Source of the DNA: an uncultured Gammaproteobacteria bacterium
GTDB taxonomy: Bacteria; Patescibacteriota; Patescibacteriia; Magasanikbacterales; UBA922
DNA: 64,000 nucleotides
NCBI GenBank assembly: GCA_964522405.1
Contig: CAZFTR010000004.1
Location: 22,349-86,348, forward strand
Direction of reading: 5' to 3'
Shown: positions 1-38,390 of the stretch, in pieces
How the letters are laid out: the number at the start of each line of letters is the position of its first letter
How positions within the stretch are numbered: position 1 is the stretch's first letter
Notes under the pieces: model-generated
What the model was told of the DNA's origin: nothing
Databases searched by the model: none
Seen by the model: the letters and a program-made list of their open reading frames with translations, nothing else
Made by a program: the position numbers and the translations under genes

Positions 1-114
1 AGAAGGTTCATCAATAACTATTCCTTTGTCCTGGGTATATAAAAGTGTGTTTGCAGTACCAAGATCTATACCAATGGCCTTATTTGTGATACTTCCAAAT
101 GAAAATTTAAACAT
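1..114 (-). CDS. mreB: Rod-shape protein MreB, N-terminal fragment (gene continues beyond window start)
   Basis: The reverse-complement of 1-114 translates to MFKFSFGSITNKAIGIDLGTANTLLYTQDKGIVIDEPS, matching the MreB/actin N-terminal phosphate-1 motif (IDLGTANTLIY...GIVLNEPS). Confidence 0.6.
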   Translation of the reverse strand, partial: MFKFSFGSITNKAIGIDLGTANTLLYTQDKGIVIDEPS

Positions 115-146
115 AAAATTTTGTTGCGACAGGCAGCAAAATTAAT

Positions 147-1397
147 CTATTTTAAGCTATCTACTATTTTTCCCAAATCCAATAGACTAGATTGATCACC
201 GGTTCGTTCTTTTATTTCTACTGAATTTTTTTCTAAAGTCTTTGGGCTAATTACAATTCGTTTACTAATTCCAATTAAGTCGCTATCAGAAAATTTCTCA
301 CCAGGCCTAACACCATCTCGATCATCATACAGTACCTCTATACCAGCCTCAAGTAAGCTATTATAGAGCTTATTGGCCTGATCAATGTCTTTTGCTTCCC
401 TGCATAGCGAAACCAAATGCACCTTAAACGGAGAGATAGACTCTGGCCAAACAATACCATTATCGTCAGCAAAAGCTTCCACCACAACACCCATCAAACG
501 TGCTACTCCAATTCCGTAAGAGCCCATCACTACAGTTTGTTTTTGACCATTCTCATCAGTAAAATCTAATCCCAAAGGCTCTGAATATTTGGTTTTCAAA
601 CTAAATATATTTCCTACTTCAGCTGCATTTACTTCTTCTAGATCTTCTTTTTTTAAATTAAGATCTGCAATTACTTCGTCTGAGTAAACTTCTTTGTTAA
701 TAGCTATCTTCTTTGCTCTGTTCAGATAGATTGTATCTTCTCCTGCTTCAACCAAAGTTTGAAATTCATGAGAATATTTTGAGAAAGGTCCACCAGATGA
801 AAAAGTAATATAAGTTAGCTCACCAAGACCAATTTTCTCAAAAATCTTTAGATATGCATCTGAACACTGCTGATAAAATTCCTCATGTTCAGTTTCTGTA
901 CGTGAAAATGAATATAAGTCTTTCATAATAAACTCACGAGTTCTCAAGATTCCACTCTTTGCTCGAGTCTCATTTCTAAGTTTAGTTTGAAATTGATAAG
1001 CGCTAAAAGGAAGATCCTTGTATGAATTTATATATTGTAGCATAGCTCGAGTCATTGGCTCTTCATGACTCCAAGCCAAACCAAGCTGGGTTTTGTTTTT
1101 TAATTCTGTCTTAAACCAAGCATCAACACTTTCCTCTGACCAACGATCAGTTAATTTCCAAATTTCTTGATCCTGAAGAGTAGTCATAAACATCTCTTGA
1201 CCACCAATAGCATTGATTTCCTGACGTATAATATTTTTTATTTTTTCTATAACCCTTAAACCGAGTGGTAGAAAACTATAAACTCCGGCCATTTCCTTGT
1301 GTATAAAACCTGCCCGAGCCAAAAGCTGGGCATTTTTACTAATCTCGTCCTTTGGAGCTTGTTTTACTGTTTTGGTTAATAGTTTGGATTGGCGCAT
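147..1397 (-). CDS. proS: Prolyl-tRNA synthetase, short form without editing domain
   Basis: 416-aa ORF with class II aaRS motifs and clear ProRS-like segments (HEEPMTRAML..., FSAYQFQTKLRNETRAKSGILRTREFIMKDLYSF). Confidence 0.9.
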   Translation of the reverse strand: MRQSKLLTKTVKQAPKDEISKNAQLLARAGFIHKEMAGVYSFLPLGLRVIEKIKNIIRQEINAIGGQEMFMTTLQDQEIWKLTDRWSEESVDAWFKTELKNKTQLGLAWSHEEPMTRAMLQYINSYKDLPFSAYQFQTKLRNETRAKSGILRTREFIMKDLYSFSRTETEHEEFYQQCSDAYLKIFEKIGLGELTYITFSSGGPFSKYSHEFQTLVEAGEDTIYLNRAKKIAINKEVYSDEVIADLNLKKEDLEEVNAAEVGNIFSLKTKYSEPLGLDFTDENGQKQTVVMGSYGIGVARLMGVVVEAFADDNGIVWPESISPFKVHLVSLCREAKDIDQANKLYNSLLEAGIEVLYDDRDGVRPGEKFSDSDLIGISKRIVISPKTLEKNSVEIKERTGDQSSLLDLGKIVDSLK

Positions 1398-1424
1398 ACA
1401 AAATCTCTAGATTTAAAAATGATT

Positions 1425-1835
1425 TTAATCATTATCGCTAAGAACAAAACTGTCCTGCTTGTTTTTAAGGGTTGCTTTAAATGATATTACTAAAATAAAA
1501 ATAAAAAATAATAGACCAAAATTCCAAATACTTAACCAATCCTTAATCTGTAAATAAAGCACAATAGTAAAAAAAATAGAAACAAAAACAGAATCTCTAA
1601 AACTCAGACTAACGTATTTGAATAAGGGCATGGCCTGTTTGGAAAAAAACTTATGAGCAAAGAAGAGTAATACTGAACTTATTCCAAGTACACTGAAAAA
1701 AACCGTTGAATAGAAAAAAGCAAAGGTTAAATTGGTTCCCTGATAAGGATCAACATTGGATATAACAAAAAACAAAGCACTTATGCAAAGCAATGTTGCC
1801 AGTCCCATTGTAAGTAAATATTGCTTTAAATTCAT
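1425..1835 (-). CDS. Hypothetical polytopic membrane protein
   Basis: 136-aa ORF with about four hydrophobic helices and host-like A+T-rich codon usage. Confidence 0.45.
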   Translation of the reverse strand: MNLKQYLLTMGLATLLCISALFFVISNVDPYQGTNLTFAFFYSTVFFSVLGISSVLLFFAHKFFSKQAMPLFKYVSLSFRDSVFVSIFFTIVLYLQIKDWLSIWNFGLLFFIFILVISFKATLKNKQDSFVLSDND

Positions 1836-1899
1836 AAAAAACAGCTTTTAGCTGTAGTGTAAGTTTACCTTGATCCTAATTATTTTGCAAGAGGATATT

Positions 1900-2232
1900 T
1901 TAGAGTAAATATCGTATTCGATCTACTTCATTTTTGCCTAATTTATCATTAACTTTTTGTACTATTGCTGACTGATTAAGACGAATCTCCTGAGCCATAC
2001 TTGAGCTGGTACAGCTTATAGTTAAAGTTCTATTTTTCAAAAAAAGCGGTTTAGCGTATATAGCTAAATCTGAACCAAACATCTCCTCCAGAACTTCTGT
2101 AGCAACCTCAATAATCTCAGCACTCTCAAGCTGTTTTTTTAATGGTGAATTTTTTCCGATTTTGTCATGCAAGGCATCACCAAGAGGAGTAAAACCCATA
2201 TGGTCTTCAAATAAATCAGTAAGAAAAATCAA
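1900..2232 (-). CDS. DciA/DUF721-like protein
   Basis: C-terminal segment TLTISCTSSSMAQEIRLNQSAIVQKVNDKLGKNEVDRIRY follows the DciA/DUF721 pattern (TLLVAVDSPVWLHQLNFMKREIL...IRFRLG). The true start may be the internal Met near 2199. Confidence 0.4.
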   Translation of the reverse strand: MIFLTDLFEDHMGFTPLGDALHDKIGKNSPLKKQLESAEIIEVATEVLEEMFGSDLAIYAKPLFLKNRTLTISCTSSSMAQEIRLNQSAIVQKVNDKLGKNEVDRIRYLL

Positions 2233-2297
2233 TTCAACAGTCTATAAAAAACTAAACTGCTCCATCCTAATATTTGAAATTTGCTGTACCAAAATTA

Positions 2298-2951
2298 TTA
2301 AACTCGATATAGATATACTTTACCATGTTTTTTTTCAAATTTCCAATTTGGAAAGGTAAAATCGTAAGAAACAACCACTGATCCCGGTTTCATTTCCTTT
2401 TTTATTTTTTTAGCTAATTTATCCATTTTGTGAGGAATAAAAAACAAAGTAGCCACATCAAACTTGGAAAAACTATATTTCCAAAAATTTTTTCTAATTA
2501 TTTTACCTTTTTTTCTACATTTGGCTGCAACTCTGGACTTGCTAAGCCAATAAAGATAAGGTTGTATTTCAATTCCAACGGCACTGGCACCTCTTGCTGC
2601 CGCAGCACAAACTATCCTACCATCCCCCGAGCCCACATCCAATACTGTCTTTGCTTCATCGACTTCTGCCAGATCTAACATCTCCTCCACGATTTCAATA
2701 GGTGTGCTGGCAAATGGAGCGCCACTGGCCGTTGCCTGAATTTTGAAAAATAAGATATAGAGCAATATCAATAGAAAAACAAAGAAAAGCAATATCAATA
2801 AAACAATAACAAGAAAAATTATAAAATCCTTGCTTTTAATATAAAAAAAGGCCATTCCCACTAGTAGTAAAATATCAACTAAGAGCAGAGTAAAAATTGC
2901 AATAGGTGCGTTGCTGGCTATTTTATTATCTGAAAAAAGTTTCTTTAGCAT
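2298..2951 (-). CDS. Membrane-anchored class I SAM-dependent methyltransferase (paralog 1)
   Basis: Two N-terminal TM helices followed by SAM-binding motif I (VLDVGSGDGRIV). The C-terminus (KKEMKPGSVVVSYDFTFPNW) is shared with the adjacent paralog. Confidence 0.6.
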   Translation of the reverse strand: MLKKLFSDNKIASNAPIAIFTLLLVDILLLVGMAFFYIKSKDFIIFLVIVLLILLFFVFLLILLYILFFKIQATASGAPFASTPIEIVEEMLDLAEVDEAKTVLDVGSGDGRIVCAAAARGASAVGIEIQPYLYWLSKSRVAAKCRKKGKIIRKNFWKYSFSKFDVATLFFIPHKMDKLAKKIKKEMKPGSVVVSYDFTFPNWKFEKKHGKVYLYRV

Positions 2952-2953
2952 AT

Positions 2954-3463
2954 TTAAACAATGTACAGCCTTATATTATCATCTTTTTGCTCAGCTTCCC
3001 AGTCTGGGAAGATAAAGCAATGCGAAACAATGCGAGATCCTGGTTTCATTTCTTTTTTAATCTTCTGCATAAGTTTATCCATTTTATTTGAAATAAAATA
3101 AATAAATAGTACATCAACCTCACTTAAATCTGTTTTCCAAAGATCCTCTCTAATTATCTGGGTATTTTTGGAGCCAATAAGTCGCAATCGACTATACCAG
3201 GATAAAATCGGATTAATTTCAACACCAATTGCTTTTTTAACAATAGCCTTAGTCTTTCTAATAACTCTACCATCTCCAGAACCAAGATCCATGAGTATAT
3301 CAGTCTTTCTCAGTTCAGCAATTTTAATCATTTTTTCAAGTTTTTTTGAAAGAGTGGGCACATATGGAGCAGCTTTCACAACAGCAAAGACAGTATATAT
3401 CATAAATACTGCAATAATTATCAATAGAATTGTACCAAAACTAAGTACTAATAAACTTTCCAT
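2954..3463 (-). CDS. Membrane-anchored class I SAM-dependent methyltransferase (paralog 2)
   Basis: One TM helix followed by motif I (ILMDLGSGDGRVI). The C-terminus (KKEMKPGSRIVSHCFIFPDW) is homologous to 2298..2951, so this is a tandem duplication. Confidence 0.6.
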   Translation of the reverse strand: MESLLVLSFGTILLIIIAVFMIYTVFAVVKAAPYVPTLSKKLEKMIKIAELRKTDILMDLGSGDGRVIRKTKAIVKKAIGVEINPILSWYSRLRLIGSKNTQIIREDLWKTDLSEVDVLFIYFISNKMDKLMQKIKKEMKPGSRIVSHCFIFPDWEAEQKDDNIRLYIV

Positions 3464-3505
3464 AAATACTAAATTAGTTGACAGTTAAATCATTAGTTGG
3501 TTAAA

Positions 3506-3533
3506 TTTACAGTATTGCATTTGCAATTTTAAT
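3506..3533 (+). promoter_or_regulatory. Candidate promoter of GC island A (TTTACA-N16-TTTAAT)
   Basis: The hexamers sit directly upstream of the purine-rich tract AAGGGGGAAGG (3542-3552) and the GTG at 3555. Confidence 0.3.
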
Positions 3534-3554
3534 CGAACGACAAGGGGGAAGGAC

Positions 3555-3935
3555 GTGCATCGCGCTTTCAGACGTGAGCATTGCTCGGCCATATACCAGG
3601 GTGATATGGAAGTCGATCTCGGTCGTCTCACCCCGAGTGAGAGATTCGGCCTAGACGTCCTGTTGCGCCTGTTTCGTGGTCGGATCAAGATGAAGGATAC
3701 GGGCATGGGAAATTCAGCATTGGTCTTCCGCCTCTCGGAACTCCGCTGCAGAATGAACTCGAGAGGGCCGGATCTACAGGATCTGACCGTGGAGACAGGT
3801 CTGAACGGTCACATCACACTCTCGACCGGTGATCCGGAATCGGCTCATCGGATGCGCGTGGACTTCAGCGAACCGCCACCGGACGGCGATCATTCGCGCC
3901 ATCGGCGCGTGTTCCCGCCTGACTGGGCCGTGTGA
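3555..3935 (+). CDS. Hypothetical protein encoded in G+C-rich island A
   Basis: 126-aa ORF with GC3-rich codons (CGC, CTC, GAC) in an A+T-rich neighbourhood. An SD-like tract lies upstream, but only 2 nt from the GTG; the internal ATG at 3606 is an alternative start. No recognisable domain. Confidence 0.35.
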   Translation: MHRAFRREHCSAIYQGDMEVDLGRLTPSERFGLDVLLRLFRGRIKMKDTGMGNSALVFRLSELRCRMNSRGPDLQDLTVETGLNGHITLSTGDPESAHRMRVDFSEPPPDGDHSRHRRVFPPDWAV

Positions 3936-3972
3936 GTTACCCACGGTTCTAGTCCTTCGCTGTCCAAGCATC

Positions 3973-4005
3973 GCCCCTGGCGCTGGATTTATCCACGCCA
4001 GGGGT
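3973..4005 (+). terminator. G+C-rich hairpin closing island A
   Basis: CCCCTGGCG-ctggatttatcca-CGCCAGGGG, a perfect 9-bp stem, followed by ttcgccatttatat. Confidence 0.5.
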
Positions 4006-4058
4006 TCGCCATTTATATGGGGTATATAGAGCAACTATGGCACTACTACCAAATACCA

Positions 4059-6998
4059 TTAGACACCAAACTCACAAATATCTCGATAATCACAATAACC
4101 ACAGGAAAATTTACTTGGAGCAGCCTTGAAATCTCGTTCATGTATATTATCAATTAAAGCAACCAATTTATCTCTTAATTTTTCTATTTGTTTATCTTCG
4201 CCAGTAAATTCTGCTTTTATATTATCATTGAGATACCAAAAAGTAAGTGTTCCAACCGGACCAATATTTCGATATTCCGGCAGACTCTGCGCTGCAATTT
4301 GATAAATTAAAAGCTGCTCCTTATCATCAGCAGTTAATTTCTCTTTTGATTTTCCGGTTTTATAATCAATTATATCCAAATTCCCTTCTGAATTCTGATC
4401 AATTCGGTCAATCTTACCACGAAGAAGATAATCCCCTACTTTGATTTTAAAACCACTTTCAATCTTTACTGGAACTGTCCAATTTCCTTCTTGAGCAGCA
4501 TAAAAAACTCGTAATATTTCTTTTCCTTTTTTAAAATAATCCTCTCTTTGTCTTTTTGATTTATACCAATCGCCTATCCAGGATTTCTCATAAATTTCAA
4601 GCAGTTCATCAAGTGATGGTACAGAAACTTGATCAGTTTTTTCTTTTTTGGGAGAGCTATCAAAAAGTGATCCTTGATTGGCACTGTTTAGCTCAACTAC
4701 TCTTTCGTAAAATTTCTGAAGCGTATTATGAATTGTGTTTCCAAAACTAAAGCTTGCACTTCCACGAGCTGGGATTTTTAAAATATGCTGTAATTTATAT
4801 TTATAAGGACAAGTATCATAAGTTTTAACCTGCGAAAAAGAAAAGGCCTTGGGAATTTCATATACAAATTCTGATTTCTCTTGATTGTTTTTGCTTGGTT
4901 CAGATATAACTCCACTCTCCTTACCAACGACTTGATTTCCACTATCTTCAACACCAGTCTCTCCTATAAATCTACTTGCTTTCTTTTTTCTAGCTCCACC
5001 ATAATCTATAGAGCTGACCATAAATAATCTCTTTTTTGCTCGAGTCATGGCAACATAGAACAATCTTCTCTCTTCCTGGATATGTGCATCACCTTCCGGA
5101 AGCTGCTCCCTTACTAATTGATCTGGAATCTGAATATCTCCCCCTCGTCTCCGACTTGGTATACGATCTTCAACCATGTTAACCACAAAAACATACTTGT
5201 ATTCAAGACCTTTGGACTTATGAATGGTCATAATATTAACACTGTCAGGCGTATCAACTGGCTGAAACATAATACCCTGATCTCCAGACTCGATAACTGC
5301 ATTGAAATATTCTACAAAATGAGAAACATTTGAGTCTCCAATTGCAGATTCATATTTATCAAGAAAACCAAAGAATTGCTGAAGCTGATAAATCTGGCGG
5401 ATTACTTTGCCATTTCCTTGATCTTCCTCGTGAGTTAGATACGTTAGATAGCCACTTTTTTCCAAAAAATTAAAAAGTGCACGACTGGTTTTCTCATATC
5501 TGGAATCTTTCATTCCAGAGTGAAGTAAATCAATTACTTTGTCACAAACAGCAATCCCCTCTTTTGAAACTCCAAATTGAGCTGCTCGTTTTAATGCTTC
5601 ATAATAAGTTACACTTTTTTTACCTTTTTGATGGGTTATTTTCTGCAAATCTGATTCTCTAAGCTCAAGAAAGGGCATTTTCAACAATCTAAATATGCCA
5701 TGCTGTTCATGATAATTATTTATAGATCGTAGAAAACTCATGCAATCAAGTACAATTGGCTGGCGATAAAGCCCGGCTGAAGCAATATATTCATAAGGAA
5801 TCTTTGCTGACTCAAGCGCATTTACAAATGGCTCAACATGACTGTTGGCTCGAACCAAAATTGCAAAATCATCCCAAACAGCTTCTTTATCCTGCTCTTT
5901 TATCTCAACAATTTTCTCAAGCACTCCTCTAGCCTCATTTTCAAGCTTATCAAAACATAGATGCTGTACTTTTTGAACTTGGTTTTTCTCGCTATTAATT
6001 TTTGAAACTAATTTTTTATCAATTTTCAATTTCTCTTCCAATCTATCTGGATTGTTGTTTTGAATAAGCTCATAAGCTGAATCAAGAATCTCCTGAGCTG
6101 AGCGATAATTTTCAGTTAAAACAATTTCTTTGGCTTTTGGATAATCATCTTTGAAACGCATGATATTACTAACACTGGCTCCACGAAAGGCATAGACACT
6201 CTGATCATCGTCACCTACCACAGTTAATTTTGAATTTTCAGCCAGTAATTTAACAAATTCGTACTGAGCATAATTAACATCTTGAAATTCATCTACCAGA
6301 ATATACTTATATTGATTTTGTAATTGCTTTTTAATATTTTCTCTATCTTGTAAGAGTTTAACTGTATAAAAAATTAGGTCACCAAAATCTAAAGCATTTT
6401 TATCTAATAATAATTGATTGTACCTGTGATAAGCGCTTGCAATTTCAGTAAGTCTGGTTTTTTCATCCATACTTGCTGAATCTTTTTCTAACTTCAATTC
6501 CTCTGCATAATCCAGATATTCTTGCGGTGTGATAAGTTCATCTTTGCATTTTGAAAAATGCTTGAGAAAACCATGAATATTTTTCATTGGATTTCCAAGA
6601 GGTCGATAATAATCCAACTCAAAATCATACAGGTGTTCGCGCATCAAGAGCCAAGCCTCTGTATCTGAAACTAATTTAAATTCATTTGGCAAACCAATAT
6701 TCAAACCATAATGTTCAAGAATTCTTTGGCAAAATCCATGAAAGGTTGAGATTTGCACGTCAGTATAGCCAGTATCAAGTAACTGATCCACTCGCTCTTG
6801 CATCTCATTAGCTGCGTTTTCATTGAAAGCCAGTGCCAAAATTTCTTCTGGTTTAGCCAGACCCCTTTTTACAATATCTGCAATTTTTTCAGTAATTACA
6901 GTGGTTTTTCCAGTTCCTGCTCCGGCAATAATAAGGAGTGGACCGTCATGGTATTCAACAGCTTGTTTTTGTGATTTGTTTAGCGATTTTTCAGCCAT
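4059..6998 (-). CDS. UvrD/PcrA-family helicase fused to a C-terminal RecB/Cas4-like nuclease domain with Cys cluster (AddA-like)
   Basis: Walker A AGAGTGKTT, the UvrD motifs and C-terminal CGYCDYRDIC. Confidence 0.85.
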   Translation of the reverse strand: MAEKSLNKSQKQAVEYHDGPLLIIAGAGTGKTTVITEKIADIVKRGLAKPEEILALAFNENAANEMQERVDQLLDTGYTDVQISTFHGFCQRILEHYGLNIGLPNEFKLVSDTEAWLLMREHLYDFELDYYRPLGNPMKNIHGFLKHFSKCKDELITPQEYLDYAEELKLEKDSASMDEKTRLTEIASAYHRYNQLLLDKNALDFGDLIFYTVKLLQDRENIKKQLQNQYKYILVDEFQDVNYAQYEFVKLLAENSKLTVVGDDDQSVYAFRGASVSNIMRFKDDYPKAKEIVLTENYRSAQEILDSAYELIQNNNPDRLEEKLKIDKKLVSKINSEKNQVQKVQHLCFDKLENEARGVLEKIVEIKEQDKEAVWDDFAILVRANSHVEPFVNALESAKIPYEYIASAGLYRQPIVLDCMSFLRSINNYHEQHGIFRLLKMPFLELRESDLQKITHQKGKKSVTYYEALKRAAQFGVSKEGIAVCDKVIDLLHSGMKDSRYEKTSRALFNFLEKSGYLTYLTHEEDQGNGKVIRQIYQLQQFFGFLDKYESAIGDSNVSHFVEYFNAVIESGDQGIMFQPVDTPDSVNIMTIHKSKGLEYKYVFVVNMVEDRIPSRRRGGDIQIPDQLVREQLPEGDAHIQEERRLFYVAMTRAKKRLFMVSSIDYGGARKKKASRFIGETGVEDSGNQVVGKESGVISEPSKNNQEKSEFVYEIPKAFSFSQVKTYDTCPYKYKLQHILKIPARGSASFSFGNTIHNTLQKFYERVVELNSANQGSLFDSSPKKEKTDQVSVPSLDELLEIYEKSWIGDWYKSKRQREDYFKKGKEILRVFYAAQEGNWTVPVKIESGFKIKVGDYLLRGKIDRIDQNSEGNLDIIDYKTGKSKEKLTADDKEQLLIYQIAAQSLPEYRNIGPVGTLTFWYLNDNIKAEFTGEDKQIEKLRDKLVALIDNIHERDFKAAPSKFSCGYCDYRDICEFGV

Positions 6999-7095
6999 AT
7001 TCTCTACTTTATATGTTTAATTGTAGCAGATAGAAGAGCAGGAATCAAAAACTGCTTTTTTATAACTTAAATTAGCCAAATTTAATTAAGAAATA

Positions 7096-7124
7096 TTGAC
7101 AAAAGCACTAAAATATGCTATACT
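7096..7124 (+). promoter_or_regulatory. Consensus sigma70-type promoter of island B (TTGACA-N17-TATACT)
   Basis: TTGACA at 7096-7101, a 17-nt spacer, then TATACT at 7119-7124. Confidence 0.5.
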
Positions 7125-7148
7125 TTTTTGTTCGTTCGTCAAAGGAAA

Positions 7149-7661
7149 ATGCTAGTGAACAGATCAGATCGCGGCTGGACTGCCGCCTTCACGGTCGGGA
7201 GCTTGCTCCTGATCGCGATGCTCGTTGTGGACTACACGGTTCATGACCTTAAAATGAGAGAGCTGCACCAGGCCGTCGTCACGGACTTCGACGAGTTGGT
7301 GCCGGGCATGTGCTACGGCATGGAGATCGAGAGCGGCAAGTTCCAGGTGGTCTGCATCCACCAGTCGCGGAACTGCCCGGACCCCAAGTCCGACGACTAC
7401 GGCGTGGTCAAGCCAAGCGAGTGCCGCCTCGAACGCCCCGAATGCATCGAGTCGGCCAAGGTCACCGAGTTCGGCGCCCTGCAGTACCCTCAGTGGGTGG
7501 TGGTTGGCGAGAGCTACGAGATCTCGGGAAGCCGCCACACCCTCGACCTCGACGACCAGGACTACTGCGTGTTCACGCCCCACAAGTGGCCTGAGCCGTC
7601 CGACGAGTGGGAGTGGCAGGACGTCATCGAGGACACCGGGGACTCCCCCGACGCGCAATAG
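7149..7661 (+). CDS. Hypothetical signal-anchored Cys-containing protein with acidic C-terminus (G+C-rich island B)
   Basis: AAAGGAAA SD at 7141-7148, then ATG 7149 or GTG 7155 (the ORF-track TTG at 7128 has no SD). Contains an N-terminal TM helix (WTAAFTVGSLLLIAMLVV) and six Cys, with GC3-rich codons. Confidence 0.45.
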   Translation: MLVNRSDRGWTAAFTVGSLLLIAMLVVDYTVHDLKMRELHQAVVTDFDELVPGMCYGMEIESGKFQVVCIHQSRNCPDPKSDDYGVVKPSECRLERPECIESAKVTEFGALQYPQWVVVGESYEISGSRHTLDLDDQDYCVFTPHKWPEPSDEWEWQDVIEDTGDSPDAQ

Positions 7662-7792
7662 CGCAATCCGGCATCCTGCCGGGGCAGCGCGAGATGTGCG
7701 AGATTTTGACGACGAACGACGCCGCCCATCCCGAACTGCTTGAGCATCTAAAATCTGGAAATTCAAGCGGAGGCGGGATGTGCCGCTTAATT

Positions 7793-7827
7793 TAAAAATC
7801 CTACTCATTGTAGGATTTTTATTTTGT
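7793..7827 (+). terminator. Rho-independent terminator of island B
   Basis: AAAATCCTAC-tcatt-GTAGGATTTT followed by TATTTT. Confidence 0.6.
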
Positions 7828-7836
7828 ATGAATTTG

Positions 7837-8601
7837 TTATCTTCTAGTATCTTCTCCGAGTAAAACTCTATCTACGAATTTCTTTATAAGTGAATTGGAG
7901 TCTGGTGTTGGCTTGGCATTTTCAGCAATTTGTCTAAGCTCTTCTGCTGCTGATTCATCAGAATAATACCTGTCTACATATCTGGTAATTCTAGCTATCA
8001 GGTCTTGATCATCCACTTCTGGATGAAACTGTGTTGCATAAAACGGCTTGTCTTTTAGCTTTATGGCATGGATCGGACATTTCTCACTCGAAGCCAGAAG
8101 TATAGCTCCATCTGGAATTGACTCTGCCCTCTCCCTATGACCTGACACTGCTTGAAAACCATCTGGAATATCATGAAAAAGTAAATCTTTGTTAGCTTCT
8201 TCTGTTTTCTTGATTGGATAGGTACCCATTTCCATATTTTCTTCATCAACAATAACTTTTTTTCCAAGAGCTTCGGTAACACACTGAAAACCAAAACAAG
8301 AAGCAAAAACCGGAATTGAATTATCTGCACAATATTTTATTAATTTTTTGGAAGACTCTACAAATGGATATTTCTCCGGTTGAATAACTGAAGCATCACT
8401 TGAGCCACCAACAAAAAGTGCATCATAACCAGCGATAATATCTGATTCAAATTCTGGAGTATCAAAAACATTCAAAATAGTGAATTGATTTTTATCTAAT
8501 TCACTATACCTAACAAATTCTTCAAATTCTTCATTCTTTGTTACTTCATCATCACGAATTTGCATGTATAGAATTTTTAAATCTCCTCTTTTTTTATTCA
8601 T
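7837..8601 (-). CDS. Class I glutamine amidotransferase-like protein
   Basis: Catalytic Cys in SCFGFQ and His in QFHPE, a GATase1 signature, with a ~60-aa C-terminal extension. Confidence 0.7.
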   Translation of the reverse strand: MNKKRGDLKILYMQIRDDEVTKNEEFEEFVRYSELDKNQFTILNVFDTPEFESDIIAGYDALFVGGSSDASVIQPEKYPFVESSKKLIKYCADNSIPVFASCFGFQCVTEALGKKVIVDEENMEMGTYPIKKTEEANKDLLFHDIPDGFQAVSGHRERAESIPDGAILLASSEKCPIHAIKLKDKPFYATQFHPEVDDQDLIARITRYVDRYYSDESAAEELRQIAENAKPTPDSNSLIKKFVDRVLLGEDTRR

Positions 8602-8616
8602 ATTTTTGACATTAAT

Positions 8617-8646
8617 AAACCCCGCTTTTTGCGGGGTCTTTTTTAT
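8617..8646. terminator. Bidirectional intrinsic terminator
   Basis: AAACCCCGC-ttttt-GCGGGGTCT with T-runs on both strands, between two minus-strand genes. Confidence 0.6.
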
Positions 8647-8791
8647 TTAGGTAGAGTTATGATTTAGACACCGCAAAATTATCATGGTTGACCACCACTA
8701 CAGTCAGGTTCAGAATAATACTATTTTTAGCTAAATTCATATTATATTCAGATTATCAGAGATTAACTTAGCTGTCAAATTATGACTAAAT

Positions 8792-10552
8792 TTAAGGAAT
8801 AAACCCACCTGCCTGCAAGTCCCAGAGCTTCTTGTAAAGCCCATTTTTGCGTTTTAAGAGTTGCTGATGCGAACCTTGTTCAACTATATCACCTTGATCA
8901 ATTAAAATGATTCTGTCCATTCTCATAATGGTTGAAAGTCGATGAGCAATTACAATAACTGTTTTATCTTTCATCAGCTTATTCAATGCATCCTGGATCA
9001 GCATCTCTGATTCTGAATCAAGACTAGATGTAGCTTCATCAAGAATAAGTATTGGAGAATTACTAAGTATTGCTCGAGCAATTGCTACTCTCTGACGCTC
9101 ACCACCAGATAATTTAACACCTCTTTCACCAACAAAGGTTTGGTACTTTTCTGGAAGAGAATCAATAAATTCATGACAATGCGCAGCTTTTGCAGCTTCT
9201 ATGACTTCTTCATCAGTGGCTTCTGGTTTTCCATATCGTATATTCTCCATCAAAGTTCTATGAAAGAGAATTGGGTCTTGTGGAACCATGCTAATTGCTC
9301 TATGAAGTGAATCCTGAGTGATTTTTCTAATATTTTGACCATCAATATTTACCTTACCTTTTGCTGGGTCAATTAATCTGAGTAGTAATTTAACAACAGT
9401 TGATTTTCCTGCCCCACTTGGACCGACTAATGCAATTCTCTCCCCTGCCTTAATTTTGAAATTAAGATTCTTGATAATTGATCTGGTTTGATGATAATTA
9501 AATCGCACTGATTCAAATTCTATCTTTCCTTTTTTAACTTCAAGTTCTTTGGCATTATAAGCATCTCGCACCTTGTGAGGAGTATCAAAAATTTCAGTCA
9601 TTTCTTCGGCATCAGCAAGTGCTTCATAGTATTTTCGGATAATTCTTCCAAAATTCCAGAGCTTCATAAATATTGCGATCAAATATGCTTGGATCAAAAC
9701 AAAATCACCAATTGTAATTATCCCCTGATTCCAGAGCTTAATTGCTATATAGAAAATGACAAACTCAAGAATAATCATCAGCAATGTCTGAACTGCTTCG
9801 AATCCTGTAGCAAGATCCCAACAAAATCTTCTTATTTTGCGTAATTCATCTGTAATTTTTTTGAATCTAAGACCTTCACGTTCATACCCAGCAAATAACT
9901 TGATAGTAGAATAATTTGTAATTGAATCTGCAAGAACACCAGTTGTTTTTGAATCCATCTCACTGCGTTGAACATCAAATTTTAACTTATACCTAGAGAA
10001 TAAAAAATTAGTAAAACAATAAATAAAAATCCAAACCAAAATAAATATTCCAAGAGCAGAATTTCTCCTCCACAGAATAATATTGATAAGACCTATTTCC
10101 ATGATGATCGGCAAAAGTTCCCAACTTATAATATCTGCAAGAGTTTCAAAGGCGCGATAAAATCTATTTACTTTCTTGACTAGTGAACCTACAAAATTTC
10201 CTTCAAAAAAACCAATAGCATGTTTGTGCATGTATGCAAAACAGGTATTTGGCAAATCAGCCATGATATGAGTCTGAAAATATGAGTTCAAAAAAGCTGC
10301 TCCACGCCAAAAAATCCAACCAATCAAATGGATAATAACTACTTTTATTAAAATTCCGATTAAGACATCTGAATTTGCTCCACTATTTAAATCATCAAAA
10401 AATTGTTTATAAAAAAGAGGCGCAATTACATTTGTAATAGAAGCTAGTATAATAAACAAGACAGTGAAAAAACCTGACTTTTTATACTTGAGCACATGTT
10501 GCCAATAAATTTTTACAGTAAGTTTTTTCCTATATTTCATAAAACTTGGCAC
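8792..10552 (-). CDS. ABC transporter, fused permease/ATP-binding exporter (MsbA-like)
   Basis: Six TM helices, then Walker A GPSGAGKST, the LSGGERQRVAIARAIL signature and a Walker B. Confidence 0.85.
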   Translation of the reverse strand: MPSFMKYRKKLTVKIYWQHVLKYKKSGFFTVLFIILASITNVIAPLFYKQFFDDLNSGANSDVLIGILIKVVIIHLIGWIFWRGAAFLNSYFQTHIMADLPNTCFAYMHKHAIGFFEGNFVGSLVKKVNRFYRAFETLADIISWELLPIIMEIGLINIILWRRNSALGIFILVWIFIYCFTNFLFSRYKLKFDVQRSEMDSKTTGVLADSITNYSTIKLFAGYEREGLRFKKITDELRKIRRFCWDLATGFEAVQTLLMIILEFVIFYIAIKLWNQGIITIGDFVLIQAYLIAIFMKLWNFGRIIRKYYEALADAEEMTEIFDTPHKVRDAYNAKELEVKKGKIEFESVRFNYHQTRSIIKNLNFKIKAGERIALVGPSGAGKSTVVKLLLRLIDPAKGKVNIDGQNIRKITQDSLHRAISMVPQDPILFHRTLMENIRYGKPEATDEEVIEAAKAAHCHEFIDSLPEKYQTFVGERGVKLSGGERQRVAIARAILSNSPILILDEATSSLDSESEMLIQDALNKLMKDKTVIVIAHRLSTIMRMDRIILIDQGDIVEQGSHQQLLKRKNGLYKKLWDLQAGGFIP

Positions 10553-10670
10553 GTTTAAACTTGAACAAAATACCCAGTTTAGGTGCTAGGTCTACTAATG
10601 AAGACGTAAAATTCGAAATTTTGTTACAAAATTAACAGAAATTACCAAATTATCCCATAAAATCTCAACC

Positions 10671-10696
10671 AAAAAACCGGCTTATGCCGGTTTTTT
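10671..10696. terminator. Bidirectional intrinsic terminator
   Basis: AAAAAACCGGC-ttat-GCCGGTTTTTT. Confidence 0.6.
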
Positions 10697-10706
10697 GGAG
10701 TCAATT

Positions 10707-10886
10707 CTATTCTGCTGGATCTACTGGAGTTTCTCCCCCACCTTCTGGCATTGGAGCTACTTGCTCTCCACCTGCTTGAGTAGACATTTCTCCGCTTCCA
10801 CATGAGCATGTGCTACAAGCTGAACATCCACCACACTCCATGCATGCTGGACCGCTACAACTTGCGCAAGTCTTTAATTCTTCCAT
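10707..10886 (-). CDS. Small Cys-rich (metallothionein-like) protein, not present in the supplied ORF track (59 aa)
   Basis: The reverse-complement translates to MEELKTCASCSGPACMECGGCSACSTCSCGSGEMSTQAGGEQVAPMPEGGGETPVDPAE, with 10 Cys in the first 30 residues. A terminator lies immediately downstream. Confidence 0.45.
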   Translation of the reverse strand: MEELKTCASCSGPACMECGGCSACSTCSCGSGEMSTQAGGEQVAPMPEGGGETPVDPAE

Positions 10887-10965
10887 AGAAAAATTAAGGT
10901 TAAAAATATGTAATAAAGTATAGATTAGAAAAAACCTTTCGTCAAATTTGGATAAATTTCCTTTG

Positions 10966-10999
10966 CTGCACCCGAATCGCCGAAGCGAGACGGGTGCAG
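10966..10999 (-). terminator. Hairpin at the 3' end of the island C gene
   Basis: CTGCACCCG-aatcgccgaagcgagac-GGGTGCAG, a 9-bp G+C-rich stem. Confidence 0.4.
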
Positions 11000-11048
11000 C
11001 GTGAATCAGTAAAAAATCCTGGTGAAAAACCCGGTAGGACCTCGAGTT

Positions 11049-11354
11049 CTAGATGAAGTCGTGCTTGCGACACTTGCGCACCATGTGCAGCGCGCCGTCG
11101 ATGCGCATTGCCGGAATGCCGAGCGCGTAACGCACAACCTTACAGCCGACTTCGCCCAACTGCTCGTAGGCGAGAGCGATCCTGCTCTCCTGACCAAAGA
11201 TCCACTTCACAGCCGAGCACTCGAGAGCAGTGACCCTCTCATTCGCCGTCCCGATGGCCATGATTCCGTCGAGCGTCAACTCTCCGATGACCACAGCGCA
11301 GTCTTGAACCACCAGCTCGCCCATGAACAGAGCACTTCCCAATACTTCTTTCAT
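11049..11354 (-). CDS. Hypothetical protein of G+C-rich island C (101 aa, begins MKEVLGSALFMGELVV...)
   Basis: ATG at 11354 is preceded by GGGGGG and by TTGACA-N16-TATTAT. The longer track start at 11369 lies upstream of the SD. GC3-rich codons. Confidence 0.45.
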   Translation of the reverse strand: MKEVLGSALFMGELVVQDCAVVIGELTLDGIMAIGTANERVTALECSAVKWIFGQESRIALAYEQLGEVGCKVVRYALGIPAMRIDGALHMVRKCRKHDFI

Positions 11355-11385
11355 TGGCCCCCCGACCAATTATTGATCCAGGGAA

Positions 11386-11413
11386 ATAATAGCTCATTTA
11401 TATTTATTGTCAA
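11386..11413 (-). promoter_or_regulatory. Consensus promoter of the island C gene (TTGACA-N16-TATTAT, read on the minus strand)
   Basis: -35 at 11408-11413 and -10 at 11386-11391 (reverse-complement). Confidence 0.45.
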
Positions 11414-11437
11414 CCCTGGCGTTCGCGAACGCCAGGG
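11414..11437. repeat. Perfect 24-bp palindrome CCCTGGCGTTCGCGAACGCCAGGG abutting the island C promoter
   Basis: It shares the CCCTGGCG/CGCCAGGG stem with the island A hairpin and the CGTTCGCG core with the island E palindrome. Confidence 0.6.
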
Positions 11438-11518
11438 TGAACCGAGCAGAAGACAGTACTGAGTCAAAATTAAAAAACTGCCCAAGTGGACAGTTTTTTA
11501 GAAGTAATTCTTCTTTAG

Positions 11519-12823
11519 CTAAATTGCTTCACCTAGGGGTTTGGGCTTTTCTCCTGTTTCTTTCATTACTCCCTTCTCAAACAAAATTGCACCAAGAACA
11601 GTCACAAGAATAACACCAAGAAGTGCAGCTGCTGCCATAGTTTCACTGAGTACATTGTTGGCAATTGCAACTGCTACGAAAACTAAACCAACTTCACCAC
11701 GAATTGACATTGCATAACCAACAAGTTTTCCTTCGTTGCGGTCCTTGAATAAATATTTAACAATATATTTTCCATAGAATCCAAGAACTGTAAATATAAT
11801 TGCATAAATCCAAGCTTTTGGAGACATAATTGCTTCACGGGTAAGCATGGTTCCAATACTTACCAGGAATCCACCAACAAAGATATGTATATATCCCTCG
11901 ATCTTTTCCCAAACTTCATGTTTGATCTCATTATCAACTTTTGAAAGTACCACACCAATACCAAAGGCACCAAGAACAGGCTCAAGACCAACCACAGCTG
12001 CAAGTGCTCCAGCAATAATCAAGGCACCAAAGAAAAATCTAGTATAAGGCCCTGTTGTAGTTTTTACGTAATGCTTATCAAGATATTTGGCAATCTTATC
12101 AGCAACACCCATACTCCACATTAGATAAGCTCCACCAAAGAAAGCAAGAACAGCAATAGCAAGCCAGATAAGACTCATAGCTTCTAGGTGACCTTGAGAT
12201 AATTTTGCAAGCACAGTTAGAACCAGCACACCAAGAATATCATCAATCACAGCAGCCCCAACAATTCTGTTTCCCATGTTTGTACTAAGTTTTCCAGCAG
12301 CTTTTAGAGCTTCTACTGAAAGACCAACTGATGTTGCTGTGAAAATACCACCCAAGAAAATAGCCGGAAGCCATTCCATACCAAGAGCATAATGTCCTAG
12401 AAGCGCAAAAGTAACCAATGGAATAAAGACACCACCAAAAGCAACCAGACTGGCAATCCCAATATTTTTCTTGAGAAGTTCCATGTCAAAATGAAGTCCA
12501 GCTTCAAATAAAATAAAAAGCACACCAGCTAGGCGAGCAATTTCAACTCCGTGAGCATATGGATCAAGAACACCCATAGCTGCAGGACCAGCAATAATAC
12601 CCATTACAATCTTACCTGCCATTGGTGCAATACCAAATACTTTGGCAAGTCTTCCACCAAAAGATGCAAAAACAGCAAGAAATGCAATATCAATCAAAAT
12701 CGGCATGATGGTATTGATCTCATGATGATGACTGTGCAACAAGGCCTCGCGCAAATAGTGCAGACCAATTGCGAATACCACCACTTCTATAGTTAGAAGT
12801 GCTAGTGTCTTCAATTTATTCAT
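11519..12823 (-). CDS. Cation:proton antiporter (CPA2 / Na+/H+ exchanger family)
   Basis: 434 aa with about 12 TM helices; architecture and motifs are Kef/NapA-like. Confidence 0.75.
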   Translation of the reverse strand: MNKLKTLALLTIEVVVFAIGLHYLREALLHSHHHEINTIMPILIDIAFLAVFASFGGRLAKVFGIAPMAGKIVMGIIAGPAAMGVLDPYAHGVEIARLAGVLFILFEAGLHFDMELLKKNIGIASLVAFGGVFIPLVTFALLGHYALGMEWLPAIFLGGIFTATSVGLSVEALKAAGKLSTNMGNRIVGAAVIDDILGVLVLTVLAKLSQGHLEAMSLIWLAIAVLAFFGGAYLMWSMGVADKIAKYLDKHYVKTTTGPYTRFFFGALIIAGALAAVVGLEPVLGAFGIGVVLSKVDNEIKHEVWEKIEGYIHIFVGGFLVSIGTMLTREAIMSPKAWIYAIIFTVLGFYGKYIVKYLFKDRNEGKLVGYAMSIRGEVGLVFVAVAIANNVLSETMAAAALLGVILVTVLGAILFEKGVMKETGEKPKPLGEAI

Positions 12824-13038
12824 AAATTTTTCCTAATTGTCATCCCGAGCGAAATGCTAGAGAGTCAAGAGATCTCCTTTTCAAAGAATATTTTCCTTAA
12901 AAGGGTGATTCCTCCACTCTATTCAAGATAACCTATAAATTATATTAAATTACGACTGCAATATTATACAGTTAAATAGCTTAAAAATCAATACAATTTG
13001 GGGATAAAGCCAAGTTACAAAATTGTGAAAAATGCTGA

Positions 13039-13067
13039 TTTACAAGTAAGTAGAAATATGCTAGGAT
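13039..13067 (+). promoter_or_regulatory. Candidate promoter of island D (TTTACA-N17-TAGGAT)
   Basis: Lies upstream of the GGGAGG SD at 13087-13092. Confidence 0.35.
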
Positions 13068-13102
13068 ATTTCAGTAATCTGGAACCGGGAGGAAAAAACC
13101 GG

Positions 13103-13849
13103 ATGTTTCTTTTGGAATTCACGAAAAAGCACCCCTACCTGGTAATCGCCAGTGTGGCTCTGACCACTCTGCTGATTGCTGCCATGGTGATGATTCAGCA
13201 GAGGATCGATACCAGCAAGGAGCGGATCGCGACTGCATGTCTCGAGAGAATCGCCAACCCCTGCACCTTCTACAAGGTCTCAGACTCGGGCTACACCTGT
13301 GAGAAGTGGCACGTCGCCGACGGCACTGATTGCAAACAGAGCGCCTGCATGACAGGCGACTGTGTCTGCAAGGACGGCAAGCCGACTTCCGACTCCTGGC
13401 GGGACTGCTCTTCGCCGAGCGATCCCTGTCGGGTCGACGTTTGTGTTCCTGACGACGCTGAAGAGCTGGGCTACAGATGCGTGCCCGGGGTGCATGAGGA
13501 CCGGAATCGCAAGATCTGGCTCGATCACAAGCCCGACTTCACCCCCTGCCTGGACGATGGCATCTGCATCGGACGTACCTGCATTGGCCCCGAAGGTCGC
13601 GTGCTGGCTCCACTACCGATCAAGTTCACCGAAACCAAGGCTCGGGACATGCCGACAGGCTTCGAGCTCAATCTCTGCGGGAACTGCCATCGCTACAGCT
13701 ACGACTGGAACTACAGCGGTCCTGTCACCTGTGGCAGCTGCCACCTGGAAGGCGCCGACATGCTCAACCGATCATCCGATAGACTGCTCTGGCATCTCGA
13801 GATCGAGGAAGGGCTGCCGGCCAAAGAGTTCCTGGGGGAGGTGATGTAA
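13103..13849 (+). CDS. Signal-anchored Cys-rich protein with two CxxCH motifs (putative dihaem c-type cytochrome), G+C-rich island D
   Basis: GGGAGG lies 10 nt before the ATG at 13103 (the ORF-track start at 12998 lies in A+T-rich DNA upstream of the SD). One TM helix, then 20+ Cys including CGNCH and CGSCH. GC3-rich codons. Confidence 0.4.
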   Translation: MFLLEFTKKHPYLVIASVALTTLLIAAMVMIQQRIDTSKERIATACLERIANPCTFYKVSDSGYTCEKWHVADGTDCKQSACMTGDCVCKDGKPTSDSWRDCSSPSDPCRVDVCVPDDAEELGYRCVPGVHEDRNRKIWLDHKPDFTPCLDDGICIGRTCIGPEGRVLAPLPIKFTETKARDMPTGFELNLCGNCHRYSYDWNYSGPVTCGSCHLEGADMLNRSSDRLLWHLEIEEGLPAKEFLGEVM

Positions 13850-13978
13850 TGCCGCAGACACGAGCACGAGGGCCACCAAGTAGAGGCGCCGGCACCAGCC
13901 CCGGCGGGAGCATGTCAACTGCTGCTCTGCACCGGCTGGCGACTCTCTTATTATTTTAATTTTAGAATGATGAGAAAG

Positions 13979-14007
13979 AAAAAACTCGCTTATTGCGAGT
14001 TTTTTTA
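13979..14007. terminator. Bidirectional intrinsic terminator (end of the atp operon)
   Basis: AAAAAACTCGC-ttat-TGCGAGTTTTTTT. Confidence 0.6.
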
Positions 14008-14046
14008 AACTATTAACTGTTGTTATCTGTAAACTATCAACAATTT

Positions 14047-14472
14047 TTACTTCCTATACTTCTTCCCCACTCTAATCCTATTCATTTCTCGATCAATAAC
14101 TGCTTGAAGTTTTGCAAAATCAACATTTGATTCTTTTCCAGCTTTTTCCAGCTGTTCTTGTGCACGTTTTCTTGCTGCTTCTGCTCTATCCAGATCAATA
14201 TCCCCTGCTCGCTCTGCGTTGTCTGCAAGAATTATAATTTCACTATTTCCCCGAACTTCCAGAAATCCACCAGCAACTGCTATTGGATGCTCACCATCCT
14301 TATCTTTTATTTTCAATTCTCCAGCTTGTAAAACCGAAATTATTGGAATATGCATTGGAAGAACTGTAATCTCGCCTTCCATTGTTGGAATTGTAACTTG
14401 AAAAATCTCATCTTCGTAAACTACTGATTCAGGTGTTACAATTTTGAATTTTAGGATTTGTTCTTTTTTCAT
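14047..14472 (-). CDS. atpC: F1 ATP synthase epsilon subunit
   Basis: 141 aa; N-terminal beta-sandwich and C-terminal helical hairpin, with conserved epsilon residues. Confidence 0.85.
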   Translation of the reverse strand: MKKEQILKFKIVTPESVVYEDEIFQVTIPTMEGEITVLPMHIPIISVLQAGELKIKDKDGEHPIAVAGGFLEVRGNSEIIILADNAERAGDIDLDRAEAARKRAQEQLEKAGKESNVDFAKLQAVIDREMNRIRVGKKYRK

Positions 14473-14594
14473 TTTTTTATTAAATTGAACTTATTACTGA
14501 ATAGGTAGGTATCTCTCGACTGCGTTTTTCTTTCAGAAAACTTCGCTCGAGATGAGAACCAAGATGTGAAATTTTGATCAATGACCACTCACAG

Positions 14595-16773
<2,179 letters not shown>

Positions 16774-24332: not shown

Positions 24333-24459
24333 ATTAATCCTTAAATGTAATCAAATTATACAGTAAATTAAAATTTAATGAAATTTTTGACAAAATAATT
24401 AATCTTAAATACTATAAGTTATAGAGACCAAGTCGGCACCCCCGGCAAGGAAAATAGCC

Positions 24460-24588
24460 GTGAGCAAATTCAGAGATAATCCCAAACTGTCGGACAAGCC
24501 TCCTGTGTTCACCATCGAGTGCAATCACTGCTTCGTCCGGATCATGATCTGGGCCAATAGGTGTTGGTACTGCGGCCGCGCTCGATGA
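24460..24588 (+). CDS. Small zinc-ribbon protein (42 aa) in G+C-rich island E
   Basis: AGGAAA lies 7 nt before the GTG. Product is MSKFRDNPKLSDKPPVFTIECNHCFVRIMIWANRCWYCGRAR, with CxxC...CxxC. The overlapping minus-strand track ORF 24412..24603 lacks an SD. Confidence 0.3.
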   Translation: MSKFRDNPKLSDKPPVFTIECNHCFVRIMIWANRCWYCGRAR

Positions 24589-24632
24589 GTACCTGTGAAC
24601 CAAGCAAGAACATCAACCGCTCACCGGCGACC

Positions 24633-24707
24633 AAGCTCGTTCGCGTCGCCAACAATATTTTAAATTCAAATTTTAAAATATTGTTGGAGGAATACGCGAA
24701 CGAGCTT
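24633..24707. repeat. 75-nt nested palindrome at the edge of island E
   Basis: A 13-bp G+C-rich outer stem (AAGCTCGTTCGCG / CGCGAACGAGCTT) encloses a 14-bp A+T-rich inner stem (AACAATATTTTAAA-ttcaaat-TTTAAAATATTGTT). Confidence 0.6.
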
Positions 24708-24715
24708 TTGGTTAC

Positions 24716-24743
24716 AAAAAAAGCACCATGAAATGCTTTTTTT
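24716..24743. terminator. Bidirectional intrinsic terminator
   Basis: AAAGCA-ccatgaaa-TGCTTT flanked by A- and T-runs. Confidence 0.55.
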
Positions 24744-24759
24744 GTCTAAAATATAGATT

Positions 24760-25296: not shown

Positions 25297-25373
25297 ATTA
25301 ATCTATTGCTTTAATATTTAAAATGTGATATTTTTAGCGCTGTAATCCAGACTCGAGACAGGAGAAAGCCATC

Positions 25374-25706: not shown

Positions 25707-25744
25707 GCAGAAGGAGGCTTCAGAACCTACGATCGCACCCCCAC

Positions 25745-25776
25745 CCCCGTGTCTGTTCTCGAGAAGACGCGGGGGC
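25745..25776 (+). terminator. G+C-rich hairpin closing island F
   Basis: CCCCCGTGTCT-gttctcgag-AAGACGCGGGGG (one mismatch), followed by cagacagacttttctt. Confidence 0.45.
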
Positions 25777-25818
25777 AGACAGACTTTTCTTAAATTTGAG
25801 TTTTAAAAAACTCTTTTT

Positions 25819-36266: not shown

Positions 36267-36291
36267 GCTTAATCTAATCTATTAAATACTT

Positions 36292-38382: not shown

Positions 38383-38390
38383 GATTTCTA

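Follow-up and report, generated by a model that had tools for sequence, protein, structure and literature searches.

The 64,000-nt window analysed here (contig CAZFTR010000004.1 of assembly GCA_964522405.1, positions 22,349 to 86,348) is part of the core chromosome of a Candidatus Magasanikbacteria bacterium (candidate phyla radiation (CPR)/Patescibacteria), with an overall G+C content of 36%. It contains the F-type ATP synthase operon and genes for class II aminoacyl-tRNA synthetase (aaRS), methionyl-tRNA synthetase (MetRS), TatD, CvpA, PriA, def-fmt, Mur ligase, P-type ATPases, and BipA. No integrase, transposase, reverse transcriptase, or recombinase was detected among the window open reading frames (ORFs) scanned. 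Between the genes for a DOT1-like methyltransferase and an AddA-like protein lies a GC-rich block, designated island A, which carries a sigma-70-type promoter-like site, a small orphan ORF (ORF A), and a GC-rich stem-loop (Table 1). The 979-aa ORF adjoining island A encodes a UvrD/PD-(D/E)XK AddA-like helicase-nuclease, the nearest relatives of which are 53–63% identical and come, without exception, from metagenome-assembled genomes of Candidatus Magasanikbacteria. The gene order atpD, atpC, (Na+/H+ exchanger/ABC), AddA, (DOT1-like methyltransferase), DciA, etc. is kept over about 40 relatives.

A sequence-only reading of the window had described ORF A as a GTG-started, 126-aa frame preceded by a Shine-Dalgarno (SD) sequence, lacking a recognisable motif and closed by a hairpin in a compositionally distinct island. 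This description was confirmed throughout. The purine-rich AAGGGGGAAGG ends 2 nt before the GTG; searches of Pfam, PHROG, PADLOC, and PDB gave no match; and folding showed the hairpin behind the orphan ORF to be very stable. The public annotation of ORF A starts at the ATG at 3606 and gives 109 aa (P0001). A word-indexed search of 5.8 billion proteins returned only the self-match, an exhaustive HMMER search of 1.84 billion representatives added only two repeat-protein artefacts, and no plasmid match was found.

The AddA and DOT1 genes are 3–77 nt apart in relatives L015, L041, L028, L024, and L040, compared with 595 nt in the window; island A is therefore an insertion. Assembly chimerism was ruled out by Logan assemblies from three separate sequencing runs, which matched the window with 100% identity over 1207–8736, 6079–12781, and 12361–13861 and thus covered islands A–D and their junctions. 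A close relative with the exact empty site was not found in genome and metagenome scans, in which the best relative reached only 63–67% amino-acid identity, so that the island boundaries given are approximate.

The arms of the island A hairpin are CCCCTGGCG (3974–3982) and CGCCAGGGG (3996–4004). Folded in a 66-nt context, the structure has a free energy of −31 kcal/mol, with z = −3.5 on the plus strand and −4.4 on the minus strand. It is located between the convergent genes, 38 nt past the ORF A stop and 54 nt past the AddA stop (4059), and is the sole terminator-like structure between them. A canonical U-tract follows the stem on neither strand (UUCGCCAUUUAUAU on plus and CGAUGCUUGG on minus), and a terminator consensus scan did not flag the hairpin. 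None of 20 relatives has a GC-rich hairpin 3′ of AddA. Searches for structured RNA returned no Rfam family at gathering or E ≤ 1 thresholds. Part of the stem recurs in a palindrome at the edge of another block, island C.

Composition profiling revealed at least eight such GC-rich blocks (A–H), all intergenic and with 54–64% GC. Each contains one small ORF, the GC content of which at third codon positions (GC3) is 0.62–0.82 versus 0.21–0.25 in host genes, and a leave-one-out codon model chose the proposed frame in every island. A putative AT-rich sigma-70-type promoter (TTGACA-N16-18-TAnnnT) was recognised by consensus upstream of each island ORF; within the first 15 kb, islands C and B have the two highest-scoring matches (11/12 each), with A and D scoring as well. 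A GC-rich 3′ untranslated region (UTR) of 70–130 nt with at least one stable hairpin closes each unit. Host genes end in bidirectional terminators formed by AT-rich stems flanked by A-runs and T-runs, and the GC-rich island hairpins lie 4–37 nt from such a terminator of the convergent host gene. Of the eight defined island genes, seven run antisense to the host genes beside them, and the same proportion (7/8) converge on a host bidirectional terminator. The GC-rich tract begins between about 20 nt upstream of the start codon and about 14 codons inside the ORF and reaches 70–130 nt beyond the stop. Two island hairpins have cUUCGg tetraloops, a mark of stable RNA hairpins.

The islands are not similar to one another: nothing beyond chance 11-mers was found by blastn or tblastx. 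They contain no Pfam, PHROG, or PADLOC families. No real homologues of A, B, and D were present among billions of proteins, and a search of viral loci for C and E, as well as plasmid and phage searches, were all empty. GC-rich single-gene units built on the same plan, but unrelated in sequence to those of the window, also occur in relatives L004, L016, L024, L026, L029, and L003; their density is roughly one per 75–100 kb, far below the at least eight in 64 kb of the window. One of these (L004, 3695–4270; GC3 0.86) occupies the same slot between atpC and the Na+/H+ exchanger gene as island D, in the opposite orientation, which suggests that this slot is an insertion hot spot.

The reading favoured here, with moderate confidence, is that island A is a foreign, self-contained single-gene unit inserted antisense into the AddA-methyltransferase pair, and one of at least eight moron-like islets. 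The AT-rich promoter-like site would give a short mRNA carrying the SD sequence and the small orphan ORF (from 3555 or 3606 to 3935), which is probably protein-coding, if on a weak signal. The stem-loop would then end or stabilise the island transcript. It would also stop or insulate transcription arriving from both sides, in place of the AT-rich host terminators, blocking AddA read-through into ORF A antisense and the reverse. The hairpin thus would probably serve as a bidirectional 3′-end insulator between ORF A and AddA, and it may be a U-poor terminator of the donor brought in with the gene. Several points weigh against this reading. Lacking a U-tract, the hairpin fails the strict definition of an intrinsic terminator, and both promoter use and the ending or termination of transcripts at the hairpin are predicted from sequence. 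With neither a donor nor an exact empty site at hand (best 67% amino-acid identity), horizontal acquisition is argued from composition and synteny. The coding signal of ORF A is the weakest of all islands (length not significant, log-likelihood ratio (LLR) +4.9 bits, predicted local distance difference test (pLDDT) score 45). Finally, chance would not readily produce the stem match between islands A and C (p about 0.004–0.06), which is taken here as a coincidence.

From this stem match the sequence-only reading had derived a shared inverted-repeat family, either repetitive extragenic palindromic (REP)-like or like a miniature inverted-repeat transposable element (MITE), or else a common terminator module. 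The match itself is real: the same 8-bp stem occurs in the island A hairpin and the island C palindrome, and CCCTGGCG-N(0–30)-CGCCAGGG was found at exactly two sites in the window versus none in 100 shuffles, a lenient null, the window having 36% GC and both sites lying inside islands of 50–57% GC. The family did not hold up. Alignment and folding gave two strong hairpins, the identity of which ends at the 8 bp of stem; the loops (13 nt vs 4–8 nt), stem lengths, and flanks are unrelated. No further copy was present in this genome, where the search covered the 64-kb window and about 3 kb via L261, or in 71 loci from relatives and 40 more from metagenomes (about 1.5 Mb). The CCCTGGCG...CGCCAGGG stem is common in viral contigs (at least 120 loci), mostly in unrelated DNA of 55–76% GC among the matches listed. 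No terminal inverted repeats (TIRs) or target-site duplications (TSDs) were found at any island.

The two elements also differ in position, the A hairpin lying 3′ of ORF A and the C palindrome upstream of its gene. The island C palindrome (ACCCTGGCGTTCG/CGAACGCCAGGGT) folds, strongly on either strand, into a stem of 11 bp closed by a CGCG loop (z about −4.5), and abuts, with 1 nt of overlap, the −35 TTGACA of the minus-strand gene. On the minus strand, the order is exchanger stop, host terminator (11500–11471), 32 nt, palindrome, TTGACA (11413–11408), TATTAT, SD, ORF (about 11354–11052), cUUCGg hairpin, and the promoter of the next gene. The coding strand being minus and the palindrome lying 5′ of the promoter, it is not the terminator of the island C gene; its position between the host terminator and the promoter would suit, at most, an upstream insulator. 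The codon LLR of the island C ORF is +27 bits on the minus strand and −1.6 on the plus strand. Its start is likely the ATG at 11354, giving 101 aa, and the ORF belongs to no family and has no viral relatives.

Among 361 GC-rich perfect hairpins from unrelated high-GC DNA, which provide a fairer null, 0.14% of pairs have a common 5′-arm 8-mer. The chance of the A–C match is accordingly p about 0.004–0.008 for the 3–4 perfect island hairpins and about 0.06 if some ten imperfect ones are counted, all these estimates being post hoc. On balance, the identity of the stems is probably a coincidence; it is at most a trace of a common GC-rich donor pool, and not a dispersed repeat or the end of a mobile element. 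That the two hairpins nevertheless form one sequence family, for example a REP-like or terminator palindrome that came from one GC-rich donor, or what is left of two related islands, is unlikely. In its favour, two of just 3–4 perfect GC-rich island hairpins have an identical 8-bp stem with the arms oriented alike; both are placed at the edge of their island that faces the 3′ end of a minus-strand host gene, whose stop is 54 and 81 nt away, respectively; and GC-rich perfect hairpins are rare in this lineage (36 in 1.13 Mb). It is opposed by the unrelated loops, stem extensions, and flanks, by the presence of only two copies with none in the loci of relatives, by the frequency of the stem in unrelated GC-rich DNA, by the post hoc nature of the comparison, and by the failure of the searches to reveal a donor.

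A positive control for a genuine repeat was provided by the REP-like palindrome of the lineage, CCTGCCTGCCGGCAGGCAGG, which has an identical stem and loop in six copies in four genomes, some of them tandem, and is absent from the window. Its sites are L001 20799, L004 4314, L007 9295, and L040 2714, 2879, and 3045. It is found at the 3′ end of the L004 GC-rich islet and in 166-bp tandem GC-rich repeats in L040 (three copies); the L007 copy abuts a TTGACA-N17-TATACT promoter, within the loop of an AT-rich hairpin.

Other candidate relatives of the A and C hairpins were rejected. The island F hairpin, with a cUUCGg loop, bears CCCCTGGC in the 3′ arm, on the other side of the stem from that in island A, and the common 11-mer GCCAGGGGTTC is at chance expectation. 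The island H hairpin has CGTTCGCG in common with the C palindrome; in C the match covers arm and loop, making it a plain 8-mer match only. A family of AT-rich (34–39% GC) tailed-phage contigs from IMG/VR (L075–L079, L088, L110, L118, L131, L135, L146, L151, L158, L181, and L184) has a conserved CCCCTGGCGCTAACGCGCCAGGGG hairpin; it shares nothing else with the window and was taken as unrelated. The hairpin of these contigs, CCCCTGGCG-CTAACG-CGCCAGGGG, has the same 9-bp stem as island A and lies after a conserved small gene and before GTCCCGAACC...GGGGTCCCA. The idea of a DNA uptake sequence was dismissed, the motif not being enriched in the host genome.

Under the codon model trained on the other islands, ORF A is the best of six frames. 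The frame has a GC-phase chi-square p = 0.003, with the order GC3 > GC1 > GC2 expected of a gene of about 57% GC. It is quite improbable that island A is instead non-coding, either inert foreign DNA or a non-coding or antisense RNA, with the 126-aa ORF as a by-product of high GC. For this alternative speak the stop-free run, equalled in 20% of island dinucleotide shuffles (P = 0.20), the nearly as good antisense frame (−3.7 vs +4.9 bits), the absence of homologues, and the low-confidence structure prediction (AlphaFold2 pLDDT of 45–46 for the A and C proteins, unusable). The codon-phase pattern, the correctly placed SD and promoter-like site, the clearly coding sibling islands B, C, D, E, and G, and the absence of an Rfam match speak for a gene.

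A speculative extension, to which we give little credence, is that the islets record systematic capture: foreign small genes, perhaps whole transcripts that run from start codon to terminator hairpin and were taken up via competence, would be set beside host terminators behind host-type promoters. The GC-rich hairpins, e.g., CCCTGGCG...CGCCAGGG, would then be a signal or scar, and the islets a chromosomal, array-free counterpart of cassette acquisition. The convergence of 7/8 genes on a host terminator, the hairpins 4–37 nt away, the limits of the GC-rich tract, and the atpC–exchanger slot, filled by unrelated islets in the window and in L004, fit this proposal without proving it. The remaining alternative, that the hairpins are host recognition structures, i.e., ends or attachment sites of mobile cassettes (REP with REP-associated tyrosine transposase (RAYT), IS200/IS605 palindrome-associated transposable element (PATE), MITE, or attC-like) or shared operators, is very improbable. 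For it speak the position of both elements at the edge of an island, the perfect 26-bp palindrome in C, which has a self-complementary centre and directly adjoins a −35 box, and another GC-rich palindrome, in relative L007, that is placed against a TTGACA promoter. Against it, the islands have no TIR or TSD, no Y1 transposase, integrase, or recombinase was seen among the window ORFs scanned, no GTTRRRY/RYYYAAC core sites were read, the half-site spacings (13 nt vs 8 nt) are unlike those of one dimeric binder, and the other six islands have unrelated hairpins.

Phage morons are independent promoter-gene-terminator units added between conserved genes (PMC3594210). Like them, the islands each comprise one small gene provided with its own terminal hairpin and sigma-70-type promoter (here predicted from the sequence), lie between genes that are adjacent in relatives, deviate in composition, and vary in content among related genomes. 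Three defining features of morons were thus found in the islands; residence in a phage or prophage was not. Unlike morons, they are located in a CPR core chromosome, near the genes for ATP synthase, aaRS, and AddA, and neither phage genes nor matches to phages were found; they are unusually dense, at eight or more in 64 kb, every tested product is an orphan, and the hairpins lack U-tracts.

The A hairpin resembles an element of the REP/bacterial interspersed mosaic element (BIME) class in being a GC-rich imperfect palindrome just 3′ of a gene, where it may stabilise the 3′ end or terminate. REP/BIME elements are expected in tens to hundreds of dispersed copies per genome with conserved sequence. 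The A/C pair comprises two copies with 8 bp in common and no conservation beyond the stem, has no conserved head and no clusters, and is accompanied by no RAYT among the window ORFs scanned; the real REP-like palindrome of the lineage, CCTGCCTGCCGGCAGGCAGG, behaves quite differently. Similarly, the islands show neither TIRs with a target-site duplication nor the mutual similarity of MITEs. In common with intrinsic (Rho-independent) terminators, among which bidirectional and U-tract-poor forms occur, the A hairpin is a stable GC-rich stem-loop 38–54 nt after two convergent stops; it differs in having no U-tract on either side. The host terminators are AT-rich with A/T-runs. Island A also recalls an integron cassette with its attC site, in that an imperfect palindrome containing an extrahelical base comes after a small ORF, frequently an orphan. 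However, the islands are single and dispersed rather than arrayed, have their own promoters, and lack R″/R′ core sites (RYYYAAC/GTTRRRY), the flanks reading GTTCGCC and GTTGACA, and no integrase was seen among the window ORFs scanned. An IS200/IS605 PATE does not fit either, island A having no 5′ hairpin, each island being unique, and no TnpA having been seen.

The features of the islands and of some further elements of the window are listed in Table 1.

Table 1. Coordinates of the GC-rich islands and other features in the 64-kb window. Promoters are sigma-70-type consensus matches; GC1/2/3, GC content at the first, second, and third codon positions; TG, promoter with TG.
Feature	Coordinates	Strand	Details
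Island A	3528–4034	+	57% GC; between DOT1-like methyltransferase gene (2954–3463, −) and AddA-like gene (4059–6998, −)
ORF A promoter-like site	3478–3507	+	TTGACA-N18-TAAATT; 10/12 consensus matches; consensus match only
SD-like sequence	3542–3552	+	Purine-rich; read directly
ORF A	3555–3935	+	GTG start; 126 aa; GC1/2/3 0.58/0.46/0.62
Island A stem-loop	3973–4005		9 bp + bulged C + 4-bp inner helix (14-bp stem); UUUA loop
Island B	7096–7788	+	GC-rich block 7133–7787; putative promoter 7096–7124 (11/12, TG); ORF 7128–7661; host terminator 7793–7821
Island C, GC-rich block	~10950–11465		
Island C hairpin, 3′	10965–11000	−	cUUCGg tetraloop; z = −4.6
Island C orphan ORF	11049–11369	−	Listed as 106 aa from TTG; GC1/2/3 0.61/0.40/0.75
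Island C putative promoter	11386–11413	−	TTGACA-N16-TATTAT; 11/12 matches; joint best in 1–15000
Island C palindrome	11413–11438		Perfect, 26 bp; upstream edge of island C; 32 nt from Na+/H+ exchanger terminator (11471–11500)
Island D	13039–13945	+	GC-rich block 13113–13961; putative promoter 13039–13067 (9/12, TG); ORF 13103–13849; host terminator 13979–14005
Island H	24387–24713	+	GC-rich block ~24420–24710; putative promoter TTGACA-N17-TACTAT; ORF 24460–24588, 42 aa, CxxC...CxxC; host terminator 24714–24745
Island E	25346–25790	+	GC-rich block 25346–25801; ORF 25374–25706, GC1/2/3 0.65/0.55/0.80; 11-bp GC hairpin 25744–25775
Island F	38391–38702	+	GC-rich block 38421–38729; putative promoter TTGACA-N16-TATACT; short ORF 38425–38634; 12-bp hairpin 38675–38702
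Island G	49841–50172	+	GC-rich block 49864–50182; 72-aa ORF with two transmembrane segments 49841–50059; GC-rich 3′ UTR hairpins; host terminator 50210–50238
Small unit adjoining island C	10669–10945	−	Putative promoter TTGACG-N17-TATACT (10945–10917); ORF 10707–10886, 59 aa, GC3 0.33; terminator 10669–10698
Possible ninth block	27418–27600		54% GC; MetRS to TP_methylase gap; contains CCCCTGGCA (27587–27595)
AT-rich palindrome	36247–36288		Perfect, 42 bp (21+21, zero spacer); between convergent genes 34785–36266 (+) and 36292–37002 (−)

The ORFs of islands B and D each encode a transmembrane anchor and a Cys-rich domain and are followed by a GC-rich 3′ UTR, which in island B forms hairpins; their GC1/2/3 values are 0.57/0.38/0.82 and 0.55/0.45/0.73, respectively. 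The LLR of the island B ORF is +61 bits. The public call in island B is an antisense ORF on the minus strand (7164–7808, P0004, 214 aa), whereas codon statistics back the plus-strand frame. No homologues of the true product were found, the protein database holding the antisense call only. The island H ORF is zinc-ribbon-like by its CxxC...CxxC pattern. The composite hairpin of this island, in which a GC-rich outer stem surrounds an AT-rich stem of 16 bp (−57.6 kcal/mol, z = −10.5), immediately precedes the host terminator.

The first 7–14 codons of the ORFs in islands B, C, D, E, and G are AT-rich and host-like, with GC-rich usage after them and, in C, an internal ATG at the switch. Selection against mRNA structure around the start could explain these codons, as could a fusion of the ORFs to 5′ ends derived from the host. 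A mechanical ORF (37006–38703) carries the Mur-ligase gene on through island F. The small unit adjoining island C has host-like GC3 and encodes a very Cys-rich product (MEELKTCASCSGPACMECGGCSACSTCSCGSGEM...) with no Pfam match, which could be a metallothionein-like peptide or a precursor of a ribosomally synthesised and post-translationally modified peptide. Neither a convincing ORF nor an Rfam match was found in the possible ninth block, which could be a further islet or an unrecognised RNA. In relative L011, two GC-rich in-frame inserts of about 250 bp (8060–8336 and 10811–11064) occur within conserved genes, including the AddA orthologue; with encoded motifs such as SLRAPKGRGNPP and SFRPEPQRGEVEKSL, they resemble a repeat element that is tolerated within coding sequence.

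For the claim of a shared hairpin family, the value of these results is mostly negative: the stem match is best taken as an 8-bp coincidence and not as a repeat family. In a literature search of incomplete coverage, no account of closely spaced GC-rich orphan mini-genes on the chromosomes of CPR bacteria was found. The public call in island B illustrates an annotation hazard, as such genes become invisible to protein-based surveys when the antisense frame is annotated. The genomes of CPR/Patescibacteria are regarded as small and streamlined. The presence of at least eight orphan mini-genes of foreign composition, each with its own putative promoter, among housekeeping genes, with different ones at similar slots in relatives, points to a rapid turnover of tiny acquired genes. 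Several islet products are predicted to be membrane-anchored Cys-rich or tiny membrane proteins, and would be plausible surface or host-interaction factors for an episymbiont.

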